From NCBI GenBank assembly GCA_001800355.1, contig MGVF01000115.1, positions 1-32,000 of the forward strand: a DNA stretch of 32,000 bases, read 5' to 3'. The position numbers and the translations under genes are program-made. This document shows, piece by piece, positions 12,600 through 32,000 of the stretch (positions within the stretch are counted from its first letter, which is position 1; every line of letters starts with the position of its first letter). The DNA comes from Elusimicrobia bacterium RIFOXYA2_FULL_50_26. GTDB taxonomy: Bacteria; Elusimicrobiota; Endomicrobiia; Endomicrobiales; XYA2-FULL-47-53. The notes beneath the pieces are model-generated. The model searched no databases, was not told the DNA's origin, and worked only from the letters and a program-made list of their open reading frames with translations.

Positions 12600-12616
12600 G
12601 ATAAAAAATCCGCTTG

Positions 12617-12645: not shown

Positions 12646-12657
12646 AGCATACAACAT

Positions 12658-12673: not shown

Positions 12674-12707
12674 AACAATCAATAAATCCACATCAAGGAG
12701 AATGCCG

Positions 12708-13927: not shown

Positions 13928-13933
13928 ACTCCC

Positions 13934-15514: not shown

Positions 15515-15524
15515 TATTTTCGTA

Positions 15525-15637
15525 TTGAGGTCATTGCGAGCGTAGCGAAGCAATCTCGACGTTCTGATGAAAAGCGAGATTGCCGCGCCCTTAGGGCTCG
15601 CAATGACGGCGACAACTTCAAAACGCTGAAGAGACAC
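15525..15637. repeat. nested-palindrome MITE/REP-like element, copy B (inverted relative to copy A, one terminal repeat missing)
   Basis: TTGAGGTCATTGCGAGCGTAGCGAAGCAATCTCGACGTTCTGATGAAAAGCGAGATTGCCGCGCCCTTAGGGCTCGCAATGAC... matches the reverse complement of 12469-12599. It starts 11 nt after the serA stop. Confidence 0.7.
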
Positions 15638-15647
15638 ATATTTTCAT

Positions 15648-16403: not shown

Positions 16404-16405
16404 CC

Positions 16406-17170: not shown

Positions 17171-17171
17171 T

Positions 17172-18101
17172 ATGAATCACCGTCTGTCCTGGTTGTATGT
17201 CGTTTTAGCATTTTCACTTGCAATATCGTTTAATATTTTTGTCGTGTCAAAACGATTTTCAAATCCCTTCCCGCCGGCCGGAGTTTCTCCGATAAGCGAA
17301 TATGCCGTTTTTGACCTTGCAGGCATTGTAACCGGCACGCGCCGGCTGTTTGCCGACATTGCATGGATACAGCTTCTTCAATACTACGGGCAGACGGATA
17401 AACCCGTGGGAATGGAAGAAGAAATTGAAACGTCATGGGACGCTACGAAATTTTTATTCGGGTTGCGGCTCTGGCGGGATGAACATGAAGATGAGGAGCA
17501 ATGTGACGGGCATGATTGTCAACATCACGGCCATCGCCACATTGATGACAGCAAGGATCCGTCCAGACATAAGCGGCTTCTCAGCCATTGCCTGCGTATA
17601 GTTTCGCTTGACCCGTTTTTTAATTACGTTTATTTATACGGCGCCGGCGCGCTTGCGTGGAACCTGGAGCGCACCGATGAGGCAGTGGAACTCCTGAAAA
17701 AAGGTATTTCCGAACTTGATGCCTATCATGCAAATTTCGGCAACGATGTTAACGAGCCTTACTGGCGCATTAACCTGTACCTGAGCGCTATTTTGTACCG
17801 CAAAAGCGGCGAGTTTCTTAAAATGACGGAAGTTTTGGAAAAGGCGGTGCGCCTGCCCGAATGCCCGACGATTGTAAAATCAATTCTTGCAAATATCTAT
17901 CAGAAAGACGGTAAACTTGCGCAGTCGCTGCAACTGTGGATTGATATCTATGAAAGCAAGGATACATCCTACCATTCGCACGCCGCAGCAAAAATTACCG
18001 AATTAAGAAATATAATCCCCCTCACCCTGCCCTCTCCCCGACGGGGAGAGGATACAAAGGCTGGCGGTTTGCTCTCCTCTCCCCGACGGGGAGAGGATTA
18101 A
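17172..18101 (+). CDS. membrane-anchored hypothetical protein with His/Cys/acid-rich segment and TPR-like C-terminal half
   Basis: ATG 1 nt after the permease stop. N-terminal TM. Contains the segment HEDEEQCDGHDCQHHGHRHIDD. The last ~30 codons (PLTLPSPRRGED...SSPRRGED) read into a REP-like element, so the native C-terminus is uncertain. Confidence 0.55.
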   Translation: MNHRLSWLYVVLAFSLAISFNIFVVSKRFSNPFPPAGVSPISEYAVFDLAGIVTGTRRLFADIAWIQLLQYYGQTDKPVGMEEEIETSWDATKFLFGLRLWRDEHEDEEQCDGHDCQHHGHRHIDDSKDPSRHKRLLSHCLRIVSLDPFFNYVYLYGAGALAWNLERTDEAVELLKKGISELDAYHANFGNDVNEPYWRINLYLSAILYRKSGEFLKMTEVLEKAVRLPECPTIVKSILANIYQKDGKLAQSLQLWIDIYESKDTSYHSHAAAKITELRNIIPLTLPSPRRGEDTKAGGLLSSPRRGED

Positions 18102-18113
18102 GGTGAGGGGGGA
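18016..18113. repeat. REP/BIME-like composite palindromic element
   Basis: Two identical 21-bp hairpins, CCTCTCCCCGACGGGGAGAGG, at 18031-18051 and 18076-18096. They are enclosed by the outer inverted repeat CCCCCTCACC (18017-18026) / GGTGAGGGGG (18102-18111). Confidence 0.7.
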
Positions 18114-18137
18114 AGTTAACGTGTGAAGGAACAAAAT

Positions 18138-19628
18138 ATGAATAATTCCAGTTTCCAATCATTTTTTTTAAGGTTCACCTCTTATCTTTTCACTTTTCTA
18201 TCCCTGGCTGTTTTTGCAATAAAGCCGGTGTTTGCCGTTAATGAATATCTCAAGGCCGATGATTACCTTGCGCAGGTTGAAGCCAATAACCAGGAGATCA
18301 GGGCGATTGACATGACGCTTGATTCGCTGCTCCTGAAACCGCGCGAGGCGGAAATGGTGTATGAGCCTTATATATCGGCCGGCGGCCAATACATGAAAGA
18401 TAAAAGCGGCCCGACCTACGGGTCCACGCTCTCGGCAAAAGAAATGGATGTGTTTTCATTGAATGCCGCGTTTAATAAAAAATGGGCTGGCGGTGTTTCA
18501 CTGTCAGTCGGATACGCGCAGGCCATAACCGCGCTTGATTTGTATTCGCCCTTACAACTTACACCGGATCAATCACTATCGCAGTTTACCGCTTACGACG
18601 TGCGGCCATCGGTGCGCCTGGAGCAATCGCTTATAAAAGACCGCAAGGGCGGCCTTACCGTGTCGGGTATTGGTAAAACAAGGCTGGCCGCCAGGCAGGG
18701 CGCTTACATGCAGGTCTTCAAGCGCCAGCAGATAATAATTAAGGCGCGCTCGGCCTACTGGGCGCTTTCGCTTGCGCGGGAAGTTGTGTTATTCCGCAAG
18801 TTATCGCTGGAACGCGCCGAAAAGCTTCTAAACTGGAACAAAAAAAGGGTGGCGCTCGACCTTGCGGATAAAACGGATCTTTTGCAGGCGGAGGCCGCCC
18901 ATAAGCTAAGACAGCTCAATTACCAGCTTGCGGTTGAAGACGAGATAAAGGCGCAACGCGCTTTCAGCGAGCTGATGGGAAAAACCGGCGATACAGTGGC
19001 GGGAAATATCATGAAATTGTCGGATATGTCCGCTGCCTACGCATCTGGCGACCTTAAGCGCACCGGCGAACGCGCGGATGTGCTTGCCGCCATGGCCGGC
19101 CATGAAAGCGCACAGTATGCGCTTAAAGAAGCGGTGCATCGCACAGGGCCGGAAGTAAGCGTTTACGGGACGGTGTCTTTGCACGGGCTTGACATTGACT
19201 ACGGCCGCGCCCTCAGCCAGGCCGGAGTCGCCGATAAGCCGGCATACGGCGCCGGCGTTTTATTCAGTATGCCGCTGGGGCGCTCGCTTATAGCCTCGGT
19301 GCGCAAGGGCTATGATGCCGACGTGGAAGCGGCGAAAGAGACACTTGAAAAAACAAGGATTTCTGCGGCAAACGATTGGCAGGACATGGTAAACACCTGG
19401 CGTAACGTAAAAATGAGGATGGCGCTGGCTGTTCAGATACGCGACATCCAGAATGACCGCGTAAACAACGAACAAAAAAAGCTTGAGCGCGGCCGCACGA
19501 CTACGTTCCTTCTCCTGACTGCCGAAAACGATCTCGATGACGCAACGATAAACGTCTACCGCCTGATGATGGAACAGTTAACGCTTGCGGCACAATCCGA
19601 ACTATATAGTACTAAGGAAATACAATAA
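18138..19628 (+). CDS. TolC-like outer membrane efflux protein
   Basis: ATG at 18138, 7 nt after GAAGGA. Signal peptide ...AIKPVFA. Two-fold repeated helical/beta architecture of typical TolC/OEP length. Immediately upstream of the RND gene. Confidence 0.75.
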   Translation: MNNSSFQSFFLRFTSYLFTFLSLAVFAIKPVFAVNEYLKADDYLAQVEANNQEIRAIDMTLDSLLLKPREAEMVYEPYISAGGQYMKDKSGPTYGSTLSAKEMDVFSLNAAFNKKWAGGVSLSVGYAQAITALDLYSPLQLTPDQSLSQFTAYDVRPSVRLEQSLIKDRKGGLTVSGIGKTRLAARQGAYMQVFKRQQIIIKARSAYWALSLAREVVLFRKLSLERAEKLLNWNKKRVALDLADKTDLLQAEAAHKLRQLNYQLAVEDEIKAQRAFSELMGKTGDTVAGNIMKLSDMSAAYASGDLKRTGERADVLAAMAGHESAQYALKEAVHRTGPEVSVYGTVSLHGLDIDYGRALSQAGVADKPAYGAGVLFSMPLGRSLIASVRKGYDADVEAAKETLEKTRISAANDWQDMVNTWRNVKMRMALAVQIRDIQNDRVNNEQKKLERGRTTTFLLLTAENDLDDATINVYRLMMEQLTLAAQSELYSTKEIQ

Positions 19629-19629
19629 A

Positions 19630-22600
19630 ATGAACATAGCGCGCCTTTCGATTAAACGGCCTACATTTATTTCGGCGATAGTGGTAATAATGCTGGTGGT
19701 GGGATTTATATTCATGAACCGCATGAGCGTGGATATGTTCCCCGACGTTAATTTCCCTTACGTGATGGTTAATACGGTTTACCCCGGCGCCGGCCCCAGG
19801 GAAATGGAAACCCTCGTTTCAAAGGTGCTGGAAGAGCAGATAAGCTCCATCTCGGGGCTGAAAAACGTTACGTCCATAAGCCATGACGGCGTATCAATGG
19901 TTTTCGGCGAGTTCACGCTTGAGACCGATTCGCGTTACGCGGAACAGCAGGTTAAAGACAAAGTGGCGCAGGTGCGCAATAAGCTGCCCGATGATATATA
20001 CGAGCCTGTTATAAAACGTTTTGACCCGTCCGACAGGCCTGTGTTTACCATGAGCCTTACCGCCAGCCTTGCGCCCGTGGAATTGTACGATCTCGCCGAT
20101 ACTGTTATCAAGAACGGCCTGGAACAGGTGTCCAACGTCAGCAGCGTTGAAATCATCGGCGGAACACGGCGCGAGATACAGGTTAATCTTGACCTTAATA
20201 AATTAAAAGAATACGAAACAAACGTTACCATGGTGGCCGGCCGTATAGCTTCCAACAGCCAGAACATACCTATAGGTAAAATCTCGCAGGGCGCAACGGA
20301 ACTCTCATTTAGAAGCATAGGCGAGTTTCGCGCGGTAAAGCAGATACGGGACGTGGTTGTAAGCTTCATGGGTAGCGACGTGCCGGTAACCGTCAACAGG
20401 CTTGGCACGGTATCGGATACTGCCCAGGAAGTCAAGACAATAGGTTACCTGAACGGCAAGGCAGGGCTTGCGGTAAACGTTTTCAAACAATCCGGTTCCA
20501 ACACGGTTGACGTGGCCGATGCCCTTAAAAAACGCGTTATCAAGCTCAATGCTACCATGGAAAGCATGAAGGGTTCTCCGCGCCTTACCATAGTTCAGGA
20601 CGGCGCGCGCCCCATACGCATGAACATAGAAGACGTTAAGGTGACGATTTTTGAAGGCATACTGCTGGCCATACTCGTTGTTTATCTTTTCCTTGGAAAT
20701 ATACGCTCAACACTTATTACGGTAGTTGCGCTTCCCAACAGCCTTATCGGCGCCTTTATCTTTATGGGGCTTGCAAATTTCAGTATCAATATGCTTACGC
20801 TTATGGCTTTGTCGCTGGCCGTCGGGCTTCTAATTGACGATGCCATAGTTGTGCGCGAAAATATATTCCGCCATATAGAAAGCGGTGAACCGCCCATCAA
20901 AGCGGCCGAGACAGGCACAAACGAGGTTATGCTTGCGGTTATAGCCACCACTCTTACGGTGATCGCCGTGTTCCTGCCGGTGGCCTTCCTTCGCGGCATA
21001 GTAGGGCAGTTTTTCAAGCAATTCGGATTTACCGTCGTATTTGCGATGGCCATATCGCTCTTTGACGCGCTTACCACGGCTCCCATGTTGTCCGCATACA
21101 TGATTACCAGCGCCCATGGCGACGGCAAGCGCAGTTGGTTTGGGGAAATCCTGCACGCGCCCGCGGTCTGGTTTGGTTACGGTTACGATAAACTGGAAGC
21201 ATTTTACGAAAAAGTCATTGGTTTCGCTTTGCGCCACAAGCTGGCCGTGCTGGCGATGTCGGTGGTTATTTTCGTCGGCAGCCTTGCGCTGGTGAAAGGC
21301 ATACCTAAAACTTTCATGCCCACCAATGAATTCGGCGAATTCATGATTGACATGGAAGCCGGCCCTGAAATATCGTTATCCGAGATGAATAAACATGTTA
21401 CGCTTATTGACGATCGCCTCAGGCAGGAAAAAGACGTCGAGCTTATCGCCACTACAATAGGCAATTCCAACGGTGAAAGCAATATAGCGTCGTTGTTCGT
21501 TAAAATGGTTCCGGCGGAACAAAGAAACCGTTCTACGGCGGAGATGAAAGTGTTTTGCCGGAAACTGCTTGAACCCTACCAGGACACGCTGCACCCTGCG
21601 GTGAACGATTTAAGCATGGGCGGCAGCAGTGAAGCCCCGTTTTCAATGATAATTACCGGTGAAAATATCGAAGAACTCGCCGTTATCGCTGACCGCATAA
21701 AGGAAAAATTCAAGGCGATCCCGGGGCTTGTGGACGTTGCATCCAACTACAGGACGGGCAAGCCCGAATACCAGGTGAAGATGATTCCGCTCAAGATGGA
21801 AAAGCTGGGTGTGCAGTCTGTCAGCGCCGGCATGGAGCTTAGAGGCATGGTGGAAGGCGTCATACCTGCCAAATACCGCGAGAACGGCCTTGAGTACGAC
21901 ATTCGCGTAAAACTGCGCGACGATCAGCGCGACTTGAGCAAACGTTTCGACATGCTTTACGTTCCGAACGTTAACATGCAACTGGTCAAGCTAAAGAACA
22001 TTGCCGACCCCGTGCCGACAACCGGCCCGTCCAAGATACACCGCCGTAACCGTTCGCGCTATGTCATGGTCAGCGGGAATCTGGACAAGAACGGGGCAAT
22101 AGGAAACATAACCGCCGCCGCGCGCAACGTAATGCTGGCCGAAAAGATGCCGAATGGTGTAAGTTATGAATTCATAGGTTCATCGGAGGATTTTGCAGAC
22201 CTGTTCAAAAACATGTTAATTGCAGCCGCGCTTTCGGTGATATTCATATATCTTGTGCTTGCAAGCCTTTACGAATCCGTAATAATACCGCTTACTATCA
22301 TGATCGCGCTGCCTCTTGCCATAATCGGTGGGCTTGTAGCCCTGTATCTTACCGGGAACTCCATAAATATGTTTACCATGATTGGTTTCATAATGCTGCT
22401 CGGCCTTGTTACCAAAAACTCTATTTTGCTTGTTGATTACACGCAAAAACTGATTAAACGCGGCCTTGCCCGCGACGAGGCGCTTATAAAGGCCGGCGTT
22501 ACGCGCCTGCGCCCTATCCTGATGACTACCTTTGCCCTTATAGCAGGTATGCTTCCCCTGGCGCTGGGGTTAAGCGAGGTGGGGAAATTCCGTAAGAGCA

Positions 22601-22764
22601 TGGGAGTAACCATCATCGGCGGCCTTATAAGCTCAACAATACTGACGCTTGTAATCATCCCCGCCGTTTTCGGCTACATGGACACCCTGCGCCTCAAAAC
22701 AAGAAAACTTCTCGGCCGTCCCAAACAAAGAGAAATAGACAAACACGATGAACTTCTGGCCTAA
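19630..22764 (+). CDS. RND efflux transporter, AcrB/HAE-type
   Basis: ATG 1 nt after the TolC-like stop. N-terminus MNIARLSIKRPTF. TM4 motif AVGLLIDDAIVVRENI (an AcrB-like DD pair). 1044 aa, 12-TM layout. Confidence 0.9.
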   Translation: MNIARLSIKRPTFISAIVVIMLVVGFIFMNRMSVDMFPDVNFPYVMVNTVYPGAGPREMETLVSKVLEEQISSISGLKNVTSISHDGVSMVFGEFTLETDSRYAEQQVKDKVAQVRNKLPDDIYEPVIKRFDPSDRPVFTMSLTASLAPVELYDLADTVIKNGLEQVSNVSSVEIIGGTRREIQVNLDLNKLKEYETNVTMVAGRIASNSQNIPIGKISQGATELSFRSIGEFRAVKQIRDVVVSFMGSDVPVTVNRLGTVSDTAQEVKTIGYLNGKAGLAVNVFKQSGSNTVDVADALKKRVIKLNATMESMKGSPRLTIVQDGARPIRMNIEDVKVTIFEGILLAILVVYLFLGNIRSTLITVVALPNSLIGAFIFMGLANFSINMLTLMALSLAVGLLIDDAIVVRENIFRHIESGEPPIKAAETGTNEVMLAVIATTLTVIAVFLPVAFLRGIVGQFFKQFGFTVVFAMAISLFDALTTAPMLSAYMITSAHGDGKRSWFGEILHAPAVWFGYGYDKLEAFYEKVIGFALRHKLAVLAMSVVIFVGSLALVKGIPKTFMPTNEFGEFMIDMEAGPEISLSEMNKHVTLIDDRLRQEKDVELIATTIGNSNGESNIASLFVKMVPAEQRNRSTAEMKVFCRKLLEPYQDTLHPAVNDLSMGGSSEAPFSMIITGENIEELAVIADRIKEKFKAIPGLVDVASNYRTGKPEYQVKMIPLKMEKLGVQSVSAGMELRGMVEGVIPAKYRENGLEYDIRVKLRDDQRDLSKRFDMLYVPNVNMQLVKLKNIADPVPTTGPSKIHRRNRSRYVMVSGNLDKNGAIGNITAAARNVMLAEKMPNGVSYEFIGSSEDFADLFKNMLIAAALSVIFIYLVLASLYESVIIPLTIMIALPLAIIGGLVALYLTGNSINMFTMIGFIMLLGLVTKNSILLVDYTQKLIKRGLARDEALIKAGVTRLRPILMTTFALIAGMLPLALGLSEVGKFRKSMGVTIIGGLISSTILTLVIIPAVFGYMDTLRLKTRKLLGRPKQREIDKHDELLA

Positions 22765-22767
22765 AAT

Positions 22768-22812
22768 AAAAAACAGGGTATGTTGATTTTTTTCAACATA
22801 CCCTGTTTTTTT
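22768..22812. terminator. bidirectional rho-independent terminator
   Basis: A 13-bp perfect stem, CAGGGTATGTTGA (22774-22786) / TCAACATACCCTG (22793-22805). It is flanked by an A-run on the left and a T-run on the right, between convergent genes. Confidence 0.8.
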
Positions 22813-22826
22813 ACAAAAATATCAGC

Positions 22827-23573
22827 TTATTTTAACTGTTTTAACTTATCGTCATATACTTCCGAAACGTAGAAGTTCACTTCATCAACCATAACCGGAT
22901 AATTGCTTACCGGCAGTCCCTCTTCACCGAGTATTACAAGATTTTTTCCTGTATTTTTCTTAAGTATTGAATGAAATCCTATAAGGGCATATTTGTCTTT
23001 GTCTTCGGTTTCGATTATATAATAATCCAGCTTTTCGCCGGGAAGTATCTCCCTGTTTTCTTTAATCACCTGCCCGCTGATTACCTCATATAAACGTTTC
23101 TTTTGAAGTTTTGTCAGCACTTCCTCCTGCAACCGTCTCTTTTTTTCCATCTTCTTTGCAAGCAAGTCAAGCTTGTCGCCGGTTACAGGATCGCCAAAAG
23201 AGGATTTTGTTCCGTATTTTGTTACCTCGATATTACATTTTACGGGGGATTTATTAATTTCCGAAGGTGATGCGTTCATTATTTTCCCGAATACAACTAA
23301 TGTCCTGCCCATGCTATTCTTGAGCTCGCCGGCCTTTTCACCGGTAAGCACGTGCTTGTAACCCTTGTTGCTTGACGTCAGCACCAGCAAGCCATCTTCC
23401 ATGCTAAGCGTGCCTTTAACCTGTAGCATTAAAGGCATTGTTTTAACTTTGCCCGGTATATATCCTGACTTCGATTTGTCTCCTGTAAAGCGTATCACGG
23501 CCACGCTTCCGATGATTAGAATTATTAAGGCCACTGCCGCTGCGGCTAATTTTTTTCTCTGCTGTGCATTCAT
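22827..23573 (-). CDS. membrane-anchored hypothetical protein (beta domain - charged helix - beta domain)
   Basis: ATG at 23573, 5 nt after AGAGGTG. N-terminal anchor AAAAVALIILIIGSVAVI. Two similar beta-rich halves are separated by DKLDLLAKKMEKKRRLQEEVLTKLQKKRL. No family recognised. Confidence 0.6.
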   Translation of the reverse strand: MNAQQRKKLAAAAVALIILIIGSVAVIRFTGDKSKSGYIPGKVKTMPLMLQVKGTLSMEDGLLVLTSSNKGYKHVLTGEKAGELKNSMGRTLVVFGKIMNASPSEINKSPVKCNIEVTKYGTKSSFGDPVTGDKLDLLAKKMEKKRRLQEEVLTKLQKKRLYEVISGQVIKENREILPGEKLDYYIIETEDKDKYALIGFHSILKKNTGKNLVILGEEGLPVSNYPVMVDEVNFYVSEVYDDKLKQLK

Positions 23574-23615
23574 GAACACACCTCTATTTATATATTAACT
23601 GTCCGCTTGTTCACA

Positions 23616-23644
23616 ATTATAACAGAATATCCTTTTAGTTGCAA
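23616..23644 (-). promoter_or_regulatory. sigma70-type promoter on minus strand, TTGCAA-17 nt-TATAAT
   Basis: Read on the minus strand: TTGCAA (23644-23639), a 17-nt spacer, and TATAAT (23621-16). About 40 nt upstream of the 23573 start. Confidence 0.55.
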
Positions 23645-23656
23645 CGCGAACTACAA

Positions 23657-23692
23657 AGAAAAAAACAGGCCGTATAAACGGCCTGTTTTTTC
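23657..23692 (-). terminator. rho-independent terminator of the 775-aa gene
   Basis: Stem ACAGGCCG (23665-23672) / CGGCCTGT (23679-23686). On the minus strand it is followed by a T-run. It lies 24 nt beyond the stop at 23716. Confidence 0.75.
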
Positions 23693-23715
23693 TTTAAATA
23701 CTTTTAGAGCAAACA

Positions 23716-26043
23716 TTACAATCCTAGCGTTTGCTGAATAATTTCGTAACGTTCGTTGGCTTCGAGAGCATTCCACTGGTCTATGCTCATCTGGTTTAAT
23801 ATGTCATTCTTTATGAGGTCGCTCATCTCCGAGAAGTTTTTCTTGTAGAACTCCATGTCCTGGAGGCCTTCTTTTGCGTCTGCCACAGCCTTCTCGCCCG
23901 ATATGAAGCCACCGCCATAAGAGACGTTAACCTTTATGGATTTCGATCCGCTAACGTCGGACGATATGTCTCCCATGAACATTACAGACTCGCCAATTCC
24001 GGTAGTTGCAAGCGAAGCTGCAATCTCGGGCGCGTCCGTAACGTCCACGAACATAACGCCGTCCATATCCTGCATTCCCTTGCCGTCTAAAATATCAATG
24101 GTGTCAACGCTCAGTTTGGCATAGGTGCGTCCGTCAATTTGTTCGAGGCCTGAGAATGTGCCAATCACTATCGGATCCGCGCTTACGCAGTTGTATCCCT
24201 GAACTATCGAGATCTTTGTGCCAACAGCGCTTAGCTGATCATTGATGTCCGAGGGTAGCGTGTTGCCGGTTCCGACGTACTTGGATAATATAGTCCTTAG
24301 AGAGCTAACCCTGGCTTTTAATTCAGTACGTACTGACGATAAGGCAGCCGCCGCTTTATCATCTGAAGCCACGGTTGCCGCAGAACCCTGCTCGTAGGTT
24401 ATGGAGATATCCGCCGACTCCTTGTTTATGAAAAGATTTTCAAGTTTCGCAAGGCTAAGCGTATCAATCTTGCTTGAAAGCTCGTCAAGCGCGGCAATCC
24501 ACTCTTCAGCAGAACTCGTTTCTGATACTTTGTTCTCCAATTCTGCATTAATCGCCGATACGTCAAATGCTTTTTCCACTAATTTATTCGCTATTTCGCC
24601 TTCCAGTTGAGCGGATGGGTCAAGGCTGGCACAGTTGACTTTTCCTGCCTGCGCGCCGTAAGCATATAGCATCACGTCAACCACAAACTTATTGCCGGAG
24701 CCGGTTATGCCAAGCTGATTGGAAACACTGCCATTCTGCGTGTCTGCATAAGTAAGCGTTAATACCGGTCCGTTGCCTATGCTTCTTTGAAGGGCAAAGC
24801 TTTTAAAATATTTTACATCTTCATCGCCTGTATTCCACCCCATGACAAGCTTTAGCGTCTCATTGTTCATATCTTTAATCTGATTCGCATAAAGCTGTAT
24901 GGACTGTAGCCATGCAGGTTTGGTATAGCTTGGATTATTTATTATTTTGGTGTATTCCTTGCGCATGGTATCGGCGTTCAGGTCATTCGTCCCGGTTCCA
25001 AGCTTGCCGCTTCCTGACACTACCGCTCTGCCCCTGGTGTCAAAAACGGTTGTAGACCAGCCGCCTTCAGCAGCAAAGACTTCCATGGCATTTATCGTGC
25101 CGTTAAGGTGATAATTTCTTGCCGAAACCTTTATTCCCAGGTCATTGGTAACGAAACCCAGTTTTCCTGCCTGGTAATGAGATGTTTCCTTTGTTGCATA
25201 GTCGTATGTGCTTTGGAGTGATCCGTCATTCCGGTAGTTAAAACTTGTGTCGTCGCCGACTACTTTGCCGCTTGAGTCAAGGAGTACCGAAGATTTAGCT
25301 TTACCGATCAGCTGTCCCTGACTATAATAAATCACCCTGGCTTTTTGATCCTGGTAATAGACATCCGCGCCGCTATCGTCTTTATTCCAGCCGCTCTTAT
25401 TTTCACTGGACAGCTTGTCGTACTGTTCTTTTGTTATCATTTTAAGCTGTTTTGTATCTGTATATTCCAGCAAGCCATCTCTGCCGTAGTTGTATTCTTC
25501 CACGACAGCGCCATCGTGAGCATAAGTCTTAACGTTTTTTCCATTCTCTACCAATGTTACACCGGCGCCGCCTTGTGAGAAATTTACCGATATGGAATTA
25601 TTCGCCTTTGAAATATGCACTATGGCGGTGTTAATCCATGCGGCTTTGGTAGCCTCTTTCTCTATGCTTGCCTTGCCGGAATCGGACATTTTCACGCCCA
25701 GGGAACCCTGTAGCTGTGAATCGCTTATGCCCCATTTATTAAGATATTTCTCAAGGCCACCCGAGGCTGCGACGTCATCGTTATGATTTACCATTATGTT
25801 AAGCCATGTGCCGTCAGCATCCACGGTGCCGCGGTATTTGCCGCGGTCGAAAATTTGCAGGTTGCCGTTAGCATCTTTAACGGAAGCCAGCATCCCTGAT
25901 TTGTAGTTGAATACGGTGCTGATCCTGCTGCTTAATGCGCTGAAAGGATCAGCGGCGGCAAACAAGCCGGCAGGCGCAACAAAAAGTAAGAGGGTTGATA
26001 CAAGCCATGCTGCGATCCGTTGAAGCGTTTGTTTGGTAAACAT
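23716..26043 (-). CDS. large secreted hypothetical protein with degenerate YD-like repeats in the N-terminal half
   Basis: ATG at 26043, 8 nt after AAGGAGG. Signal peptide ...FVAPAGLFAAA. YD-like segments EEYNYGRDGLLEYTD and SFNYRNDGSLQSTYDYATKETSHY. The C-terminal ~350 aa match no family I recognise. Confidence 0.7.
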   Translation of the reverse strand: MFTKQTLQRIAAWLVSTLLLFVAPAGLFAAADPFSALSSRISTVFNYKSGMLASVKDANGNLQIFDRGKYRGTVDADGTWLNIMVNHNDDVAASGGLEKYLNKWGISDSQLQGSLGVKMSDSGKASIEKEATKAAWINTAIVHISKANNSISVNFSQGGAGVTLVENGKNVKTYAHDGAVVEEYNYGRDGLLEYTDTKQLKMITKEQYDKLSSENKSGWNKDDSGADVYYQDQKARVIYYSQGQLIGKAKSSVLLDSSGKVVGDDTSFNYRNDGSLQSTYDYATKETSHYQAGKLGFVTNDLGIKVSARNYHLNGTINAMEVFAAEGGWSTTVFDTRGRAVVSGSGKLGTGTNDLNADTMRKEYTKIINNPSYTKPAWLQSIQLYANQIKDMNNETLKLVMGWNTGDEDVKYFKSFALQRSIGNGPVLTLTYADTQNGSVSNQLGITGSGNKFVVDVMLYAYGAQAGKVNCASLDPSAQLEGEIANKLVEKAFDVSAINAELENKVSETSSAEEWIAALDELSSKIDTLSLAKLENLFINKESADISITYEQGSAATVASDDKAAAALSSVRTELKARVSSLRTILSKYVGTGNTLPSDINDQLSAVGTKISIVQGYNCVSADPIVIGTFSGLEQIDGRTYAKLSVDTIDILDGKGMQDMDGVMFVDVTDAPEIAASLATTGIGESVMFMGDISSDVSGSKSIKVNVSYGGGFISGEKAVADAKEGLQDMEFYKKNFSEMSDLIKNDILNQMSIDQWNALEANERYEIIQQTLGL

Positions 26044-26153
26044 TGGATTTACCTCCTTGTTAGTTATATTTCTCATTTCGTCCGATGTCTTGCTATTGTA
26101 ATAACTGTCGCTTATGAAATATGTATGGAAAAAAAATGTAATAATTGTGAAAT

Positions 26154-27317
26154 TTATCTTATTGTTTTTAAATCATTAAAGTATTGTTTATACCATTCCT
26201 TAATCATTTCACCTGTAGGTTTGGTGGAATCACTTAGTTGTATCTTTATGTCATCGCGTTGGTACTGGTAAATTTGCACTGTATTATCATGCTCATTGTA
26301 GAATCCCATCAGCCTGCCGGTGTAATATATCCACTCTTTAATTTTGTACTCATTGAATACAGTATAAAGCGGTTTGGAATTTATGTCATAATATGTCGTC
26401 TCGTTTGTTCTCCTGTCAAAGGTATACGCCAGTTTTACTCCGTCATAGCAATAATCCTTTACAACCCCGCCTTCACTTGACGTGGTATATACAGGTTTGC
26501 CGTTTTTATAATATGTAATGTCGCCGTACGTCGGTCCCATGTTTGATATATCTACCGATTTTTCAAGTATAGTATTGCCACTGGCATCTTTTTTGTAGCT
26601 ATATTCGGTTATTTTGTCTCCCTTGTAATTTTCAGTGTGGCTAAGGTTGCCGTTTTTGTTGAAATAACTTTTATTTCCATATACGTCTTCTTTATATTCC
26701 ATTCTGCCCTGGTTGTCGTAAGTATACTGCGCTATCTTGTTGCCTTCGAAATCTTCGTCGTAAAGGGCCTGGCCTGTTGCGTTAAAAATAGTTTTGGTCA
26801 TTGTAAGTTCGTCAAGCACATGTTCCACGTTCTTGCCGTACTTGTCATATTTATAACTTTTTACTTTGTTGCCTTCATAATCGTATTCATTCATGACTTT
26901 GCCGCCCATCCCCAGTTCCTGGTGGCCGATTTTTTCACCGGCGGCTGTCTTAACTATCACCCTGTTTGTGCCTTTTTCTCTTTCCGATATTTCTATAACG
27001 TTACCGTCAACGTCTTTCTTAATGGTCTTGCCTGACAGGGAGAATTCCTGCGAGCCGTCAACGTTCACTTTTACCGTAAGCCCGCCGCCGGGCGTGAAGT
27101 AAAGGCGGTTGCCGTACTTGTCCCTTGCCGCTATGGGGCGGTTGGGGAGGATGTCCACCATGTAATTGGGCTTGCCGAAATCCTGTTGTTCTACCGGCCT
27201 CAATTGATCTTGCGGGCCGAAATTAACACGGGGGGGTTCCAACGCTTCCATAAAACCGAAAGCGGTGTTATTGAGGAAGGCCAGCGTGGTAATAATTACG
27301 GGAATTGTTTTTTTCAT
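26154..27317 (-). CDS. secreted YD/Rhs-repeat protein (no Rhs core or toxin domain)
   Basis: Signal peptide MKKTIPVIITTLAFLNNTAFG. Repeats include YDYEGNKVKSYKYDKYGKNV, QYTYDNQGRMEYKEDVYGNKSYFNKNGNL and EYSYKKDASGNTI. Very AT-rich coding sequence. Confidence 0.7.
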   Translation of the reverse strand: MKKTIPVIITTLAFLNNTAFGFMEALEPPRVNFGPQDQLRPVEQQDFGKPNYMVDILPNRPIAARDKYGNRLYFTPGGGLTVKVNVDGSQEFSLSGKTIKKDVDGNVIEISEREKGTNRVIVKTAAGEKIGHQELGMGGKVMNEYDYEGNKVKSYKYDKYGKNVEHVLDELTMTKTIFNATGQALYDEDFEGNKIAQYTYDNQGRMEYKEDVYGNKSYFNKNGNLSHTENYKGDKITEYSYKKDASGNTILEKSVDISNMGPTYGDITYYKNGKPVYTTSSEGGVVKDYCYDGVKLAYTFDRRTNETTYYDINSKPLYTVFNEYKIKEWIYYTGRLMGFYNEHDNTVQIYQYQRDDIKIQLSDSTKPTGEMIKEWYKQYFNDLKTIR

Positions 27318-27377
27318 AATTTTTCTCGCGCTTCATTAGTATTATAAGGCAAAAATAAGTAAAAGTCATTAAAAATT

Positions 27378-27395
27378 TGTGAAAGTTTTGTGAAA
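27378..27395. promoter_or_regulatory. tandem GTGAAA motif (TGTGAAAGTTTTGTGAAA, 11-bp period)
   Basis: Its reverse complement, TTTCACAAAACTTTCACA, matches 29971-29988 at 16 of 18 positions. It sits about 60-80 nt upstream of the 27317 start. Confidence 0.4.
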
Positions 27396-27417
27396 CACAT
27401 ATGCCTGTCAGTGCATT

Positions 27418-27636
27418 TCAATGGAGTGTTCCGTTATCATCCATGGATATGCAAAGCTCCTTTAACGCAATTTTGACCATCTGGTCAACCGTAACGTTGT
27501 AGCCACGGCTTTCAGCATATAACCTCATTTTTTCTGCGGCTCCGCATTCAATCGCTTTCCATACAATTTGCGGGCCGATGCTTTGAAGGATGCCGAATGC
27601 CTTCGCTTCCAATCGTATGAATTCCTGGAAAGACAT
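27418..27636 (-). CDS. small hypothetical protein (72 aa)
   Basis: ATG at 27636, preceded by AGGAAG. No recognisable motif. First gene on the minus side of the divergent intergenic region. Confidence 0.45.
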   Translation of the reverse strand: MSFQEFIRLEAKAFGILQSIGPQIVWKAIECGAAEKMRLYAESRGYNVTVDQMVKIALKELCISMDDNGTLH

Positions 27637-27749
27637 TGGAATCACTTCCTTTCGTTTCGTTTATTTTATTCTCCTGTTGATATAATGCGGCCAGCGTGAG
27701 TTGCAGGGTTGAAAAAAATGTGAAATTATTGAAAATTTTGGTTCAAAGC

Positions 27750-27778
27750 TTGACAAACAGTTGCTTTGCTATTATACT
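27750..27778 (+). promoter_or_regulatory. sigma70-type promoter, TTGACA-17 nt-TATACT
   Basis: TTGACA at 27750-27755, a 17-nt spacer, and TATACT at 27773-27778. About 70 nt upstream of the GTG at 27846. Confidence 0.6.
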
Positions 27779-27845
27779 AAGCGTGCCTTAATTTGTGCAT
27801 TTGCCGTTTTGGCGAATGTTCTTTTTTTGTATTAAGGAGGTCCCT

Positions 27846-29969
27846 GTGCGGGCTATTTCTTCCTCGATTGCAATAATGTTCTGTTTTATTTTCTTTGCTT
27901 CACCTGCCTTTTCAACGTCCGTCGCCATACATTCACCTGTCGAACTTTTACTGGTTAATCCTTCGCCGCAGGCGACCGCCATGGGCGGATGCAGCGTTGC
28001 ATTAACGGGTGCCGAATCATCAGCTGTCGGCAATCCGGCATCCCTGTCGACTATTTATAATAACCGGTTGTCATTAAACTATGCTTTCTGGCCGGACGAG
28101 GTTAAGTATATGTTTGCGGGCATGGATATACCTCTTCAAACAGGCGCCTTGGGCGTTTCCATGTCCATGCTTTCCTATGGAAGAAACGCTGCCGGTTTTG
28201 ATGACGCCGGCAATGCGTATAACCTGGAATCATCTAACGAAACGGCGGCAATGTTAAGCTACTCCATCCCGGTAATAATTAAATCGCCTCTCGACTTGAA
28301 AATCGGGCTTGTAGGAATAAATGCGAAATTTATAAACAAAAAACTTGCGGATTATTCCGAAGAATCTCCGGGCATGGATGCCGGCGCGATATATTTCGTG
28401 CCGTTCATAAGGAATTTAAACATTGGTGTAGTAGCCAGGAATTTTGGAGCCGTGCCGTCGTTGCAATCGTTGGGCGCGGGGATCTCTTATTCCAGTCCTG
28501 AATTTGAGCAGCTTATTCTATCGGCCGATGGTAATTTTCCTTCGGAGGGGCAATCTTCATTATCGTGCGGCCTTAGAATGTCCCCGGCCAGGACGGTGAA
28601 ACTTTACGCCGGATGGCAGGATATAAATGCGGATTCGGGCGCAGGCCTCAGGGTAGGCATGGGCATAGATATTGGCGATCTGTCATTTAATTATGCCATA
28701 GCTCCTTTGAAGGAAGCCGGGCCAATGCAGTCCGCAGGCATTCAGTTGGCATTGGGAGCGCTGGCAGATCCAAGGATAGCCGCGGATTACCATCTTAAAA
28801 AGCATTTTTCCCAGGCCAGGGACCTTTTTAACCGTAAGAATTACGTCAAGTCGCGTTTTAAACTTGATCAGATACTGTCCCTTTATCCGGAGTACATGCC
28901 TGCTCTCGAATTGAAGGATAAAATCGGCCAGCTTGCGCAGGATAGCGGTTATCGCAAAGAAATAGAACTTTACCATACGCGTGCGGAATTGGCTTTCAGC
29001 AGGAATGATTTGCTGGTTGCCAGTAAGTATTACACGCTGATTCTAAACATGGACGATGAAGACGTTCTGGCGAAGAACGGGATAGAGAAAGTTAAGAATG
29101 TCATGAATGAAATACAATTGGAGAAAGTCAGGGAAGAAAACCGCGAAATGCTGGAGCGGTTATGGAAAATTGCCGTTGGGTTTTATAACAGGGGCGAATA
29201 TATAAAGTCCAAGGAAAGGTTTCAGGAAATACTTGTTACTGACCCAAAGCATGAGGCGACGCTGAAGTATATTTCAGATATTGATAACCAGATTGCAAGC
29301 ATAACCGCTACCCAGGTTAATGAAATGTACACCATGGGAACGGAGCTTTTTAAGAACGGCAGGTATGATGATGCCATACGCTATTTCGAGGCGGTCGTCA
29401 TTGCCGCGCCGCACCGTATAGACGCCGAGGATTTTATAGCGCGGTGCAAGGAAAAAATACAGGAAGGCGAAGAAAAAACGCGTTCCGACCGTCTTGCACG
29501 TGAACAGGACCGCATGAGAAATGAAGTTGAGACCGCCTATAACCGTGCGCTTAAACATTTTGAAAATGGGGATTACGTTCTGGCGCTTGAATGGTTTAAC
29601 AAAACCGAGGATATAGCCTCGAGATATGAATTTAAGCAATACCGCGATGAATCCAGGAGATACGTTGATACAATCAAGGCGGCCCTCGCCGAAAAGCATT
29701 ACAAGCTGGGCTTTAATTTTTATCAGCAGAATCGTTTCGAGAGCGCTTTTTCAGAATATCGGAAATCTCTGCAGTACAATCCCGAGAACCCTTCCGTAAA
29801 AGTGGAGCTGGATAAGCTGGCGCGCAGCCTTGCCCAGCAGTATTATGAACGGGGTATGAGCCATTATACCCAGGGGCAGATGGATAAGGCCAGGGAGTAT
29901 TTCAGAAAGTCTCTTTCCTACAAGCCGGACAAGGAAGAACCTTTGCGCGCCCTGGAGCGCATGAAGTAA
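27846..29969 (+). CDS. outer-membrane beta-barrel (FadL/PorV-like N-terminal motif) with long C-terminal TPR array; paralogous architecture to 444-2015
   Basis: GTG at 27846, 5 nt after AAGGAGG. Signal peptide ...FFASPAFS|T. Barrel motif PSPQATAMGGCSVALTGAESSAVGNPASL. Beta-rich to about aa 300, then at least six TPR-like repeats, for example GRYDDAIRYFEAVVIAAPHRIDA, NRFESAFSEYRKSLQYNPENP and GQMDKAREYFRKSLSYKPDKEE. Confidence 0.65.
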   Translation: MRAISSSIAIMFCFIFFASPAFSTSVAIHSPVELLLVNPSPQATAMGGCSVALTGAESSAVGNPASLSTIYNNRLSLNYAFWPDEVKYMFAGMDIPLQTGALGVSMSMLSYGRNAAGFDDAGNAYNLESSNETAAMLSYSIPVIIKSPLDLKIGLVGINAKFINKKLADYSEESPGMDAGAIYFVPFIRNLNIGVVARNFGAVPSLQSLGAGISYSSPEFEQLILSADGNFPSEGQSSLSCGLRMSPARTVKLYAGWQDINADSGAGLRVGMGIDIGDLSFNYAIAPLKEAGPMQSAGIQLALGALADPRIAADYHLKKHFSQARDLFNRKNYVKSRFKLDQILSLYPEYMPALELKDKIGQLAQDSGYRKEIELYHTRAELAFSRNDLLVASKYYTLILNMDDEDVLAKNGIEKVKNVMNEIQLEKVREENREMLERLWKIAVGFYNRGEYIKSKERFQEILVTDPKHEATLKYISDIDNQIASITATQVNEMYTMGTELFKNGRYDDAIRYFEAVVIAAPHRIDAEDFIARCKEKIQEGEEKTRSDRLAREQDRMRNEVETAYNRALKHFENGDYVLALEWFNKTEDIASRYEFKQYRDESRRYVDTIKAALAEKHYKLGFNFYQQNRFESAFSEYRKSLQYNPENPSVKVELDKLARSLAQQYYERGMSHYTQGQMDKAREYFRKSLSYKPDKEEPLRALERMK

Positions 29970-29970
29970 C

Positions 29971-29988
29971 TTTCACAAAAATTTCACT
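29971..29988. promoter_or_regulatory. tandem TTTCAC motif (TTTCACAAAAATTTCACT, 11-bp period)
   Basis: 16 of 18 positions match the reverse complement of 27378-27395. It lies 70-90 nt upstream of the receiver gene. It could also be read as -35 TTTCAC with a 17-nt spacer and TATAAA at 29994-29999. Confidence 0.4.
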
Positions 29989-30057
29989 TTTATTATAAAC
30001 CAATTCCTTAGCTTACAATTACTACGTAGTAAAAGTAACGGTTATAGGGGAAGGCAG

Positions 30058-30435
30058 GTGAACGAAATGGCGACAATTCTTATCGTCGAAGATGAAGAGT
30101 GGATCGCAAGCTTGATGAGCGAGAGGCTTCAAAAGGCAGGGCATCATACCGCCACTGCCATGACGATAAGCGAGGGAATGGCAAAACTGAAGGAGTTGAA
30201 GCCCGACGTTGTAACGCTTGATATAATTATGCCGGACTGTTCCGGGCTTGAGATGTTGCGAAGCATAAGGAAAGATCCTGAAACGTTTGCCATACCCGTG
30301 GTCGTTGTATCTTCTACTGATGAATCGGAACGGGCTTTTTCACTTGGCGCTGATGGTTATGTGCAGAAGCCGGTAAATTTTTCAAAATTGCTTGATGCGG
30401 TGAAACATTTCGCAGTTCTTGATAAAGTGTCATGA
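30058..30435 (+). CDS. single-domain CheY-like response regulator receiver
   Basis: ILIVEDEE, acceptor VVTLDIIMPDCSG, VVVVSST, VQKPV. The start is GTG 30058 or ATG 30067; this is not resolved. Confidence 0.85.
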   Translation: MNEMATILIVEDEEWIASLMSERLQKAGHHTATAMTISEGMAKLKELKPDVVTLDIIMPDCSGLEMLRSIRKDPETFAIPVVVVSSTDESERAFSLGADGYVQKPVNFSKLLDAVKHFAVLDKVS

Positions 30436-30992
30436 AGAAAAATATAGTAATTATCATGTTATTTTCAATGCTGGCTAATTTTCTGCTTCCGCGCTGTGCG
30501 GTGGAGCTGAAGGATTATGAACTGCTTTCAGGTATAATGAAGAGCCAGTCTATACTGTTTTACATGTTTTATTTCCAGATAGCCCCTTTAAAAGTTGTGA
30601 AGGCGCTTTATGGTAAGCAGGAGTCTTGTTCCAGGGCAACTAAAACTGAGGAAAAGGACAATCAGTCTCCGGCGCACGCAAACACGTCAGCTGATTTTTC
30701 ACTGGTTGGCGCAGATAAGTCGGTCGTTTTGAACCGTCTTTTAAAAGGGATGTGCGCAGGTAATATATGGCAGTCATTATGGATGCCGGACAAGCGCGAC
30801 ATTATCAAGTCCAAGACATGGATAAATCGTTTCAGCGGCGGTTTTTTTAACGTAACAATTCTCATCCTTGCTATTTTTATGGTTGCCCGCCCGCGCAGCG
30901 GAATCGAATACTTATTTTTACCTTTATATATTTTACGAAAACCCGGTTTTCACGAAAACCCGGGTTTTTTTATTTCCGAGGTGACACTATGA
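30432..30992 (+). CDS. hypothetical membrane protein (uncertain)
   Basis: ATGA overlaps link it to the receiver gene stop (30432-30435) and to the next start (30989-30992). It has two hydrophobic segments. Its 3-prime end reads through a terminator-like hairpin. Confidence 0.45.
   Translation: MKKNIVIIMLFSMLANFLLPRCAVELKDYELLSGIMKSQSILFYMFYFQIAPLKVVKALYGKQESCSRATKTEEKDNQSPAHANTSADFSLVGADKSVVLNRLLKGMCAGNIWQSLWMPDKRDIIKSKTWINRFSGGFFNVTILILAIFMVARPRSGIEYLFLPLYILRKPGFHENPGFFISEVTL
30938..30975 (+). terminator. terminator-like hairpin inside the 3-prime end of ORF 30432-30992
   Basis: AAAACCCGG (30938-30946) pairs with CCGGGTTTT (30960-30968) around a 13-nt loop, followed by TTTATTT. Confidence 0.35.
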
Positions 30993-32000
30993 AAAAAATC
31001 TTAAGGCGATTGGCGGACAATGCCATGCGAATTACCGCGCTTATCACGGCGATGGCATTTCTTTCCTTCGAACTTGTGTGGGCCAGCGGCTATTCGGATC
31101 TTCTTGATAATATGCGTCAAAAGAAGAAAAGCCAGCTTGACAATATAGCCGTCAGTTACAAGGGAATGATGACCCCGGGCATGGCCCAGAGTGGCGGGTT
31201 TACCCAGGTTACAGATAACGAAAAACAGCAAGTATACTTCCTCGATACGCATAAAGAGCTTGCGAAAATAGTGGATTTAAGAAGCGGGTTGACGGCTGTA
31301 TTTCGTAAAAGCGCGCAAAATCCAGAGAAAGTGGTTGTGTCGGTTGTAGATACCGATGACAGCATTATCGCTTCCGGTACGATAGAGAGCATTGACCTTG
31401 AGAAGGTATTCAACGCGAATCGCGGCCGCGCAGCTGCCGCGCAGTCAAATATTGACGGGGCCAAAGTTGCGGAATCCGGGGGGGATTTTGACGTAAAGAA
31501 AGCGAACGCCGCCCAAATGGATGGGGCAAGTCCGGATAACGTTGTCGAATATGTCAGGTCGTGGCTTGACAAAAATGCTTCTTTTCTTAACATACCGCTA
31601 CAGGCCGTTCAAAAAATTGTAAGCTACCTGTCGGATAACAAGGATAAGATATTTAACTGCGCCATCGAAGCTATTTCCAATGTATTTGAATTAGGCAGTA
31701 TATTTTTCAATAAGGAAGAAGTTGCGGCTACCGCGATATTGCTGGATATAATGACCGGCACATTTGATATTGGCGGCCCTGCCGAAGACATGCAGCTTAG
31801 CATGTATTCCATGCTGAAAACGGCGGAGCTTTACGGCATACGCATGACGGGTTACGATACGGATATTAGCGGCCTGTCTGCTGCCGTATCCGCCGGCAAG
31901 TCGGCGGTGGCGCACCTGGATTTGGGCCAGGGGCAGAGTCATTTTGTCGTTGTTAACAGTGTGCAAAACGGGATAGTGTCATATACTGATTCCGACAAGA
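30989..32000 (+). CDS. secreted protein with C-terminal peptidase C39-like (papain-fold cysteine peptidase) domain; partial, runs off the window
   Basis: Not in the supplied ORF track because it has no stop. I translated the frame from ATG 30989 by hand and found no stop through 31999. GAGGTG lies 6 nt upstream. Signal-like ITALITAMAFLSFELVWASG. Cys motif IFNCAIEAISNVF. LSMYSMLKTAELYGIRMTGY...SAVAHLDLGQGQSHFVVVNSV...YTDSD fits the C39 Cys...His(HfvVv)...Asp layout. Confidence 0.6.
   Translation, partial: MKKILRRLADNAMRITALITAMAFLSFELVWASGYSDLLDNMRQKKKSQLDNIAVSYKGMMTPGMAQSGGFTQVTDNEKQQVYFLDTHKELAKIVDLRSGLTAVFRKSAQNPEKVVVSVVDTDDSIIASGTIESIDLEKVFNANRGRAAAAQSNIDGAKVAESGGDFDVKKANAAQMDGASPDNVVEYVRSWLDKNASFLNIPLQAVQKIVSYLSDNKDKIFNCAIEAISNVFELGSIFFNKEEVAATAILLDIMTGTFDIGGPAEDMQLSMYSMLKTAELYGIRMTGYDTDISGLSAAVSAGKSAVAHLDLGQGQSHFVVVNSVQNGIVSYTDSDK

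Follow-up and report, generated by a model that had tools for sequence, protein, structure and literature searches.

A giant-gene locus in Elusimicrobia bacterium RIFOXYA2_FULL_50_26: evidence favouring a vertically inherited cell-envelope gene set

Gene content and organisation of the block

In the present study, we analysed the block at positions 22827-32000 of a 32,000-nucleotide (nt) stretch of contig MGVF01000115.1 (assembly GCA_001800355.1), which is referred to here as the window. The block carries genes A to G and the 5' end of a giant gene (H), and its features are collected in Table 1. The original prediction, made from the letters alone, described an AT-rich accessory block of orphan secreted proteins that looked horizontally acquired or fast-evolving. 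Our analysis points, with moderate probability, to another reading: 22827-32000 is the 5' portion of a cell-envelope locus that has been inherited vertically and has a giant Sec-exported protein at its centre, and E, F, G and the divergent D-C-B-A unit are an ancestral accessory set around the giant gene.

The window corresponds to JGI contig Ga0208977_1000302 (L001), with 0 mismatches over the 15.8 kb compared, and the same locus is present on NCBI MGVO01000115.1 (GCA_001800525.1) and on several Rifle-aquifer metagenome assemblies. Independent gene callers on several of these metagenome assemblies agreed on the listed open reading frames (ORFs) of 248, 775, 387, 72, 707, 122 and 186 amino acids (aa), and the hydrophobic N-termini of the block proteins were consistent with the predicted anchor and signal peptides. 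The genes form two divergent transcription units, D-C-B-A on the minus strand and E-F-G-H on the plus strand, as had been predicted. The region between them holds sigma-70-like promoter-like sites on both strands, TTGACA-17-TATACT at 27750-27778 (+; 11/12 matches) and TGCACA-17-TATAAT at 27799-27771 (-), and a separate promoter-like site for gene A (TTGCAA-17-TATAAT, extended TG) lies at 23644-23616. Together with the hairpins at 22768-22811 and 23692-23659, these sites bear out the claim that the block has its own promoters and terminators. The bidirectional terminator, predicted at 22768-22812, was confirmed as a 19-nt inverted repeat without mismatches, bounded by an A-run and, at its opposite end, a T-run; it separates an AcrB-type efflux operon (+) from gene A (-) and is the left border of the locus.

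We followed the sequence outward past 32000, as had been suggested, and found that the last ORF of the window is the 5' end of a giant gene. The "secreted C39-like cysteine peptidase" of the original prediction does not stand alone but forms the N-terminal domain of a much longer protein, for which the complete call, ending inside the 41-kb ENA scaffold_503, is 8,149 aa. The call on JGI contig Ga0208977_1000302 reached at least 4,449 aa and was cut by the contig end, and the NCBI copy was called at 2,663 aa. The three assemblies were colinear over the first 10 kb of the giant gene except for an indel patch at about aa 2659-2680, where they differed and where two further assemblies break. The 2,663-aa NCBI call is spurious because a frameshift lies at this patch. 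The patch itself is hypervariable and occurs outside the window (~18532-18620 in L037/L038/L039) in two versions, SPTGNLNFYNYVLRDSYRLIRG and PSNANLNFHNLTDNNFYTLRYSKTLISS.

The domain analysis of the giant protein covered aa 1-3334 of ~8,149, and the results below refer to this part. The complete C39 domain matched PF03412 with 43.2 bits, against a gathering cut-off (GA) of 22, and the window-internal part alone scored 19 bits. His318 (31940-31942) and Asp334 (31988-31990) aligned to their catalytic counterparts in PCAT1. A further C39-like segment, degenerate in that the catalytic His is missing and the Asp position replaced, resembled the C-terminal third of the complete domain (pairwise E=2e-5). 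The Tyr/Asn/Gly/Thr-rich segment that follows matched TIGR01643 (YD_repeat) with 17.3 bits (cut-off 15.8) and showed repeat periods of about 34.5, 69, 138 and 173 aa. The Ala/Ser/Leu-rich region at aa 2200-3000 had no detectable relatives. No transmembrane (TM) segment after the signal peptide, SecA-DEAD domain or ATP-binding cassette (ABC) domain was found in the analysed part, and the Rhs core motif PxxxxDPxGL was absent from it as well as from B and C. In a word-index search, by which very long proteins were apparently missed, the 337-aa N-terminus of H matched only its own 354-aa fragment.

The minus-strand unit encodes proteins that had been called orphans, a description that did not hold. 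Protein C had 26 homologues with 36-93% identity, nearly all of ~380 aa, and the named ones all belong to Elusimicrobiota/Endomicrobium; C is the best-conserved marker of the locus. Protein B looked nearly orphan in a word-indexed search; an exhaustive HMMER scan gave 81 representative clusters at E<=1e-3 and 44 at <=1e-10, and B homologues were found in the Elusimicrobiota loci L018, L025, L029, L032 and L035. Protein A aligned convincingly with a family whose members combine a TM anchor and a beta domain. Its homologue in L018, a gut Elusimicrobia metagenome-assembled genome (MAG), is a two-domain protein of 260 aa (27% identity, E=3e-18), the Endomicrobia forms have 129-143 aa (E=5e-4 for A against a 135-aa Endomicrobium form), and A-family genes precede or follow C across Elusimicrobiota. 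No Pfam or NCBIfam family was found for A. Families were thus recovered for A, B, C and E, although these families are themselves uncharacterised. Protein D, with no match in Pfam or NCBIfam, was seen only in the window lineage and a sister lineage. It is 92% identical at the aa level to its counterpart in L016, and synonymous changes in 38% of the identical codons of this comparison indicate purifying selection on D.

We also examined the predicted folds of B and C. The AlphaFold2 (AF2) model of C, with a predicted local distance difference test (pLDDT) score of 80.9, was a continuous run of beta-hairpins, and Foldseek matched it to type VI secretion system (T6SS) Rhs effectors, teneurins and Tc-toxin BC subunits at E~1e-12 with TM-scores of 0.25-0.3. 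The model of B (pLDDT 83.7) had T6SS Rhs proteins as its top matches (E=1.6e-8), and its C-terminal domain matched Stn1/Ten1 OB folds. These models suggest that C and B share the YD-type beta-hairpin sheet fold of Rhs, teneurin and Tc-BC proteins. At the sequence level, neither protein of the window matched the PF05593 or TIGR01643 profiles, and Pfam RHS_repeat (PF05593) was matched by 4/27 members of the C family, the window copy not being one of them. BLASTP of B and C against the giant protein gave motif-level matches, none of them significant; a hidden Markov model (HMM) of the C family, run on a small database, gave weak matches to B-type proteins (E=2e-5 and 7e-3) and none to the giant protein. 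C has no variable C-terminal tip and is of fixed length across the 26 homologues. The predicted absence of an Rhs core and of a toxin domain from the 387-aa protein was upheld. A proposed likeness between the A beta domain and the C-terminal OB-like domain of B was rejected (hhalign probability 0.4%).

On the plus strand, the N-terminal part of E matched the NCBIfam profiles T9SS_PorQ (NF033711; E=3.4e-21, 75.6 bits, cut-off 220) and PorV_fam (NF033709; E=7e-18, 65.3 bits, cut-off 90), and its TPR region matched TPR_2 with E=8e-29; these repeats are presumably periplasmic. Orthologues of E in Endomicrobia showed 32-34% identity over ~700 aa (E~1e-137), and the L035 orthologue, at 89.9 bits, just missed the PorV_fam cut-off of 90. 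Directly after the E orthologues in L029 and L035 comes a small protein with a sorting domain of type A of the type IX secretion system (T9SS). A receiver 45% identical to F lies between a giant gene and a C homologue in L028. Protein G had no detectable relatives. Its stop codon overlaps the giant gene start by 4 nt (30989-30992), and G is predicted to be translationally coupled to the giant gene. Small two-TM proteins stand in the same position before the giant genes of L018 and L025, with a 4-nt overlap in L025 as well. The 3' end of G contains, at 30931-30964, a tandem 17-nt direct repeat, TTTTACGAAAACCCGGT / TTTCACGAAAACCCGGG, which stops 25 nt short of the giant start and encodes a duplicated '(K/N)PGF' motif at the G C-terminus.

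Table 1. Features of the block, of the giant protein and of the genes at 5-6366. Positions are those of the window unless given in aa.
Feature	Position	Strand	Description
Bidirectional intrinsic terminator	22768..22811	both	19-nt arms 22768-22786/22793-22811, 100% complementary, 6-nt loop
A, inner-membrane-anchored protein, 248 aa	22827..23573	-	TM aa 11-29, beta domain, charged helix, second beta domain
Terminator-like hairpin between B and A	23659..23692	-	15-bp stem, 6 GC pairs, T-run
B, secreted protein, 775 aa	23716..26043	-	signal peptide; YD/Rhs-type sheet ~aa 43-345; helical middle; OB-like ~aa 620-715
C, secreted YD-type repeat protein, 387 aa	26154..27317	-	AF2/Foldseek and family of 26 homologues
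D, 72-aa protein	27418..27636	-	no signal peptide; first gene of D-C-B-A unit
Divergent promoter region	27646..27845		between D-C-B-A (-) and E-F-G-giant (+); 200 nt, GC 36%
E, outer-membrane protein, 707 aa	27846..29969	+	signal peptide; PorV/PorQ-family beta-barrel ~aa 40-330; ~400 aa TPR
F, single-domain CheY-type receiver, 122 aa	30067..30435	+	Response_reg E=5e-25
G, 186-aa protein	30432..30992	+	TM-like segments aa 5-23, 134-152
H, first 337 codons of giant gene	30989..32000	+	signal peptide and C39 papain-like peptidase domain within window
Signal peptide, giant protein	aa 12-33		
C39 peptidase domain, giant protein	~aa 215-360		Pfam Peptidase_C39
Pro/Ala-rich linker, giant protein	~aa 400-580		
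Degenerate C39-like segment, giant protein	~aa 660-710		outside window (L037 ~12535-12690)
Tyr/Asn/Gly/Thr-rich YD-type repeats, giant protein	~aa 800-2190		~1,400 aa
Ala/Ser/Leu-rich region, giant protein	~aa 2200-3000		
Asn/Thr-rich beta region, giant protein	~aa 3000-3334+		
Small T9SS type-A sorting-domain protein	5-433		TIGR04183 25.1 bits, cut-off 23
PorV_fam-like barrel and TPR	423-2015		E=1e-11 over full profile
Double-receiver response regulator	2031-3101		
dCache/HAMP histidine kinase	3116-4846		
FliG-like protein, 507 aa	4843-6366		

Composition and conservation in Elusimicrobiota

The claim that the block is AT-rich held in part. As means of 1-kb windows, the G+C content (GC) was 0.447 for 22827-32000, with a minimum of 0.375 at ~25.9-27 kb, as against 0.501 for the housekeeping stretch 6367-22826; the first stretch, 1-6366, was already at 0.464, so low GC also occurs outside the block. 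A recount of 26161-26220 gave exactly the 15 G+C in 60 nt that had been reported. At third codon positions (GC3), the per-gene ranges overlapped: 0.46-0.54 for block genes, 0.50-0.61 for housekeeping genes and 0.51-0.54 for those at 423-6366. Much of the dip lay in the first and second codon positions (GC1/GC2), because the block proteins are K/N/Y/T-rich, and in the intergenic spacers (26-36% GC). The dip is thus real, modest (~5 points) and not unique to the block, and it probably reflects K/N/Y/T-rich envelope proteins and AT-rich spacers rather than foreign origin.

Within the window, no tRNA, integrase, transposase or flanking direct repeat was found at the block border. The only tRNAs of the window, tRNA-Lys(CTT) and tRNA-Leu(TAG), lie at 6631-6809, upstream of trigger factor-ClpP-ClpX-Lon and far from the block. 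The block contained no Rfam family. A defence-system reading was tried and rejected, the only PADLOC matches in the block being generic receiver-domain ones.

We compared the block with a sister lineage, in which D-C-B-A stands beside the same AcrB-OEP-ABC-PGDH genes. The block proteins were 86-92% identical between the two lineages, OEP 85% and a 309-aa hypothetical protein of the efflux operon (hyp309) 83.5%, the lowest value; AcrB, the ABC components and PGDH were 93-96% identical. The block is only mildly fast-evolving: it changes somewhat faster than AcrB, the ABC components and PGDH, and no faster than OEP or hyp309. Of the identical codons, 34-38% showed synonymous differences in the block genes, as against 23-35% for genes flanking the block, and the block genes are under purifying selection in this comparison.

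The gene order was also found in more distant relatives. In three Endomicrobia genomes (L029, L032 and L035), the order was receiver(s)-E-(small T9SS type-A sorting-domain protein)-B-A-C. The A-C pair was kept in 9 Endomicrobia MAGs of a genome scan, and a tenth, more distant locus (L027) showed a C homologue only; other Endomicrobia MAGs and termite-gut contigs carried A-C alone. In L024, an Endomicrobia-like termite-gut contig, C is convergent with the AcrB-OEP operon as in the window, and AcrB is 39% identical over its full length. A comparison with related genomes had been proposed as a check on horizontal acquisition, and the conserved order that it revealed goes against an island. The shared block and site in the sister lineage, the RR-E-B-A-C order (RR, response regulator), the shared C|AcrB-OEP junction and the lack of mobility signatures all speak against that claim, and they suggest that the block is an ancestral, vertically inherited Elusimicrobiota envelope locus.

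Giant genes recurred beside these families. In L018 and L025, the order was B-A-C-(small two-TM protein)-giant gene; in L035, a giant gene lies 4.6 kb downstream of C; and in L028, the 3' end of a giant gene is followed by the F-like receiver and then by a long C homologue. The giant ORFs occupy 11700-16619 in L018, 8736-17564 in L025, 15978-21101 in L035 and 2-8383 in L028. Those of L018 and L025 are 33.5% identical over ~1,600 aa, the L018 one having a DEAD-box helicase-like domain, and the L035 ORF shows ~28-30% identity to both over ~450 aa. The L028 ORF (at least 2,794 aa) ends in fused glycogen-metabolism enzymes: phosphorylase, GT1, GH77 and GDE_C (E=3e-101). Multi-pass membrane proteins of 417-537 aa with no Pfam match stand near B-A-C in gut and termite Elusimicrobiota (L018 538-4841; L029/L032 15936-17561). 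They look like GT-C-type glycosyltransferases, which hints at a glycosylation link.

Explanations of the locus and a proposed mechanism

Several explanations compete for these observations. If foreign surface-protein genes had been inserted as an AT-rich cassette behind the efflux operon, this would account for the fall in GC from 50.1% in the adjoining housekeeping stretch to 44.7% (minimum 37.5%), for the sharp border at the bidirectional terminator and for the products without a Pfam family, which are the majority. The dip, however, is small and common to the genes at 1-6366, no sign of mobility accompanies the border, and the block recurs at the same site in the sister lineage. In addition, the named homologues of A, B, C and E are all from Elusimicrobiota and syntenic there, the C|AcrB-OEP junction is common to the termite-gut contig, and synonymous divergence is alike inside and outside the block. 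We consider an acquired island already largely refuted and its probability very small indeed. A polymorphic-toxin (Rhs/YD) system is improbable, too. In such a system the giant C-terminus would be toxic, the C39 domain would release the toxin, and small neighbours such as D would give immunity. No PxxxxDPxGL motif was found in B, C or aa 1-3334 of the giant, C lacks a variable tip and is kept in termite-gut Endomicrobia MAGs, the window contains no T6SS, PAAR or VgrG genes, D lies upstream of C and not downstream of a toxin tip, and neither PADLOC nor toxin-family matches were obtained. These findings outweigh what would speak for a toxin, namely the YD-type repeats in the giant, B and C, the best fold matches to T6SS Rhs effectors and Tc toxins, the hypervariable patch within the giant gene and the ~4,800 C-terminal residues of the giant outside the analysed part.

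It is also conceivable, and in our estimate unlikely without being negligible, that two unrelated neighbours have been taken together: D-C-B-A (with E) would be a housekeeping envelope-biogenesis module, for example for outer-membrane or surface-layer assembly, and a giant adhesin gene would be merely adjacent in some genomes. The units are divergently transcribed, the adjoining giant genes are of two unrelated types, and most Endomicrobia loci keep A-C without a giant gene within 10 kb. On the other hand, B-A-C abuts a giant gene in 3 independent lineages (the window, L018 and L025), with a giant gene near in L035 and L028; for genes this rare, such recurrent adjacency is more than chance would suggest. 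The giant, B and C moreover share an otherwise uncommon YD-type sheet. Our preferred reading, a vertically inherited envelope locus centred on the giant protein, itself faces several difficulties. In many Endomicrobia, A-C stands by itself, and neither E nor B nor a giant gene lies within 10 kb of it; the A-C pair may therefore act independently of any giant protein. The DEAD-box-type giant genes of L018, L025 and L035 were not detectably homologous to aa 1-3334 of the window giant. G and the small TM proteins of L018 and L025 gave a pairwise E of 0.005 and nothing by HMM, and they are positional analogues only. E of the window falls under the NCBIfam curated cut-offs, and no protein with a C-terminal sorting domain (CTD) adjoins it. 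The putative catalytic Cys224 (31658-31660, 'IFNCAIEA') was placed by motif and spacing and not by alignment, because the profile match begins after it. Beyond aa 3334, the C-terminal ~60% of the giant protein has room for a toxin or SecA-like domain, for a CTD and for TM segments, any of which could be present. Finally, the mechanistic steps given below are ones that we infer.

With these reservations, the vertically inherited envelope locus remains the reading that we prefer. The signal-peptide proteins, the PorV/PorQ-like barrel-TPR protein, the YD-type sheets and the C39 domain agree with the earlier suggestion of a cell-surface or secretion-related set, and the inventory of C, B, the giant YD segment, A, E, F and G suggests a trans-envelope arrangement. 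All secreted parts would cross the inner membrane via Sec. The barrel of E with its TPR arm could then serve as an outer-membrane anchor or portal, in the way that surface proteins with a CTD are held by PorV/PorQ during type IX secretion; the pairing of E-type barrels with small sorting-domain proteins, in Endomicrobia and at 5-2015 of the window, supports a role in holding a surface protein. A would tie the inner membrane to the E platform. A surface fibre or tube for adhesion, or for contact with other cells or substrates, may be built or capped jointly by the two short YD-sheet proteins, B and C, and the giant's long YD segment. After export, the N-terminal C39 domain might cut the giant precursor or a partner, and F would couple the system to a two-component signal. 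More speculatively, and with a likelihood that we place well below even, A, C, B and E could constitute an undescribed phylum-wide Elusimicrobiota envelope machine, a dedicated pathway for the export, anchoring or assembly of giant surface proteins with C39 as the maturation protease. If true, this would be a new secretion or attachment route, analogous to yet distinct from the PorV-CTD step of type IX secretion.

Relation to known systems and other features of the window

The giant genes of Omnitrophota are the closest known kind to the giant locus of the window. Previous work has reported that the N-terminus of these proteins carries a C39 domain close to the signal peptide, that Rhs-like beta-helices form tubes of ~1,500 aa in them, that the proteins include 'Archaeovorin'- and Dockerin-type giants and the Velamenicoccus archaeovorus protein and exceed 30,000 aa, and that their neighbours comprise a cluster like those of type II secretion systems and type IV pili (T2SS/T4P), PilZ and sugar-uptake genes (West-Roberts et al., bioRxiv 10.1101/2023.11.21.568195). 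Statistically, Elusimicrobia belong to the bacterial phyla with the strongest tendency towards huge proteins (PMC11573180). The window giant resembles the Omnitrophota giants in being one very long, largely unannotated ORF with a C39 domain near the signal peptide and ~1,400-1,500-aa Rhs-like repeats, and in adjoining a conserved envelope/secretion gene set. It differs in belonging to Elusimicrobiota, in its length (~8,100 aa against >30,000 aa), in having no TM helices or SecA-DEAD domain in aa 1-3334, and in its neighbours, which are a PorV-like barrel-TPR protein, a CheY-type receiver, YD-sheet proteins and an anchored beta-domain protein. The DEAD-type and enzyme-fusion giants of L018, L025, L035 and L028 are more like the multi-enzyme archaeovorins than the window giant is.

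We also compared the locus with three better-known systems. With the Rhs/YD proteins (T6SS Rhs, Tc BC and teneurins), it shares the YD sheet in C (Foldseek E=1e-12) and B (E=1e-8) and the passing of TIGR01643 by the giant. The sheets of C (~330 aa) and B (~300 aa), however, are too short for a closed cocoon, the TM-scores are 0.1-0.3, and no core motif, aspartyl autoprotease or toxin tip was seen in B, C or aa 1-3334 of the giant. C is fixed in length and conserved like a housekeeping protein, and its export would proceed via a Sec signal peptide and not via a T6SS. Because neither a core motif nor a toxin was seen, we do not regard the locus as a canonical Rhs toxin. The likeness to the PorV/PorQ part of the T9SS consists in the match of the N-terminal 290 aa of E to PorQ/PorV_fam, the sorting-domain partner after the E orthologues and the second pair at 5-433/423-2015. 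In contrast to those proteins, the barrel of E is fused to ~400 aa of TPR and scores below the curated cut-offs, and the phylum lies outside Bacteroidota/FCB; on the contigs around the locus, the only part covered, no T9SS core genes (SprA, PorKLMN, PorU) were seen. The locus is not a demonstrated T9SS. Like the C39 domains of bacteriocin ABC exporters (PCAT1, ComA) and of FapD, the window C39 is a papain-like domain above the Pfam GA, and its His-to-Asp spacing is 16 residues as in PCAT1. Unlike the exporter domains, it follows the Sec signal peptide of a giant secreted protein without an ABC fusion in aa 1-3334 and is accompanied by a second, degenerate C39-like segment; no double-glycine leader-like N-terminus was found among the block proteins, and no such substrate was identified. 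The lack of an ABC fusion in the analysed part sets the domain apart from the C39 of bacteriocin exporters, to which we do not assign it.

Giant bacterial proteins represent one of the largest blocks of unannotated coding sequence and have hitherto been analysed mainly in Omnitrophota. The present locus offers a smaller, more tractable giant (~8 kaa) with the same N-terminal logic of signal peptide, C39 domain and Rhs-like repeats, and it ties the giant gene to the conserved, unnamed families A, B, C and E, which recur beside giant genes in distant Elusimicrobiota; no description of the A/B/C/E module was found in the literature searched. Elusimicrobiota has cultured members, such as Elusimicrobium minutum and Endomicrobium proavitum. 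If cultured strains carry the A, B, C and E families, their role would be testable by genetics and cryo-electron tomography. For genome scanning, two cautions follow from the locus: a 5-point GC dip together with the lack of Pfam hits is insufficient for calling an island, and an ORF that leaves the end of a window can be the tip of a 25-kb gene.

Two further features of the window were noted. The genes at 5-6366 form a second, paralogous arrangement, which mirrors the HK-RR-E-CTD cluster (HK, histidine kinase) upstream of B-A-C in Endomicrobia and shares the lower GC. BLASTP of E against its barrel-TPR protein (423-2015) was not significant, and both proteins match PorV_fam independently. The ORF of hyp309 (17172-18101) lies inside the ABC/OEP/AcrB efflux operon and had no Pfam or NCBIfam match; its sister copy has 284 aa, and from its position the protein is probably the periplasmic adaptor.

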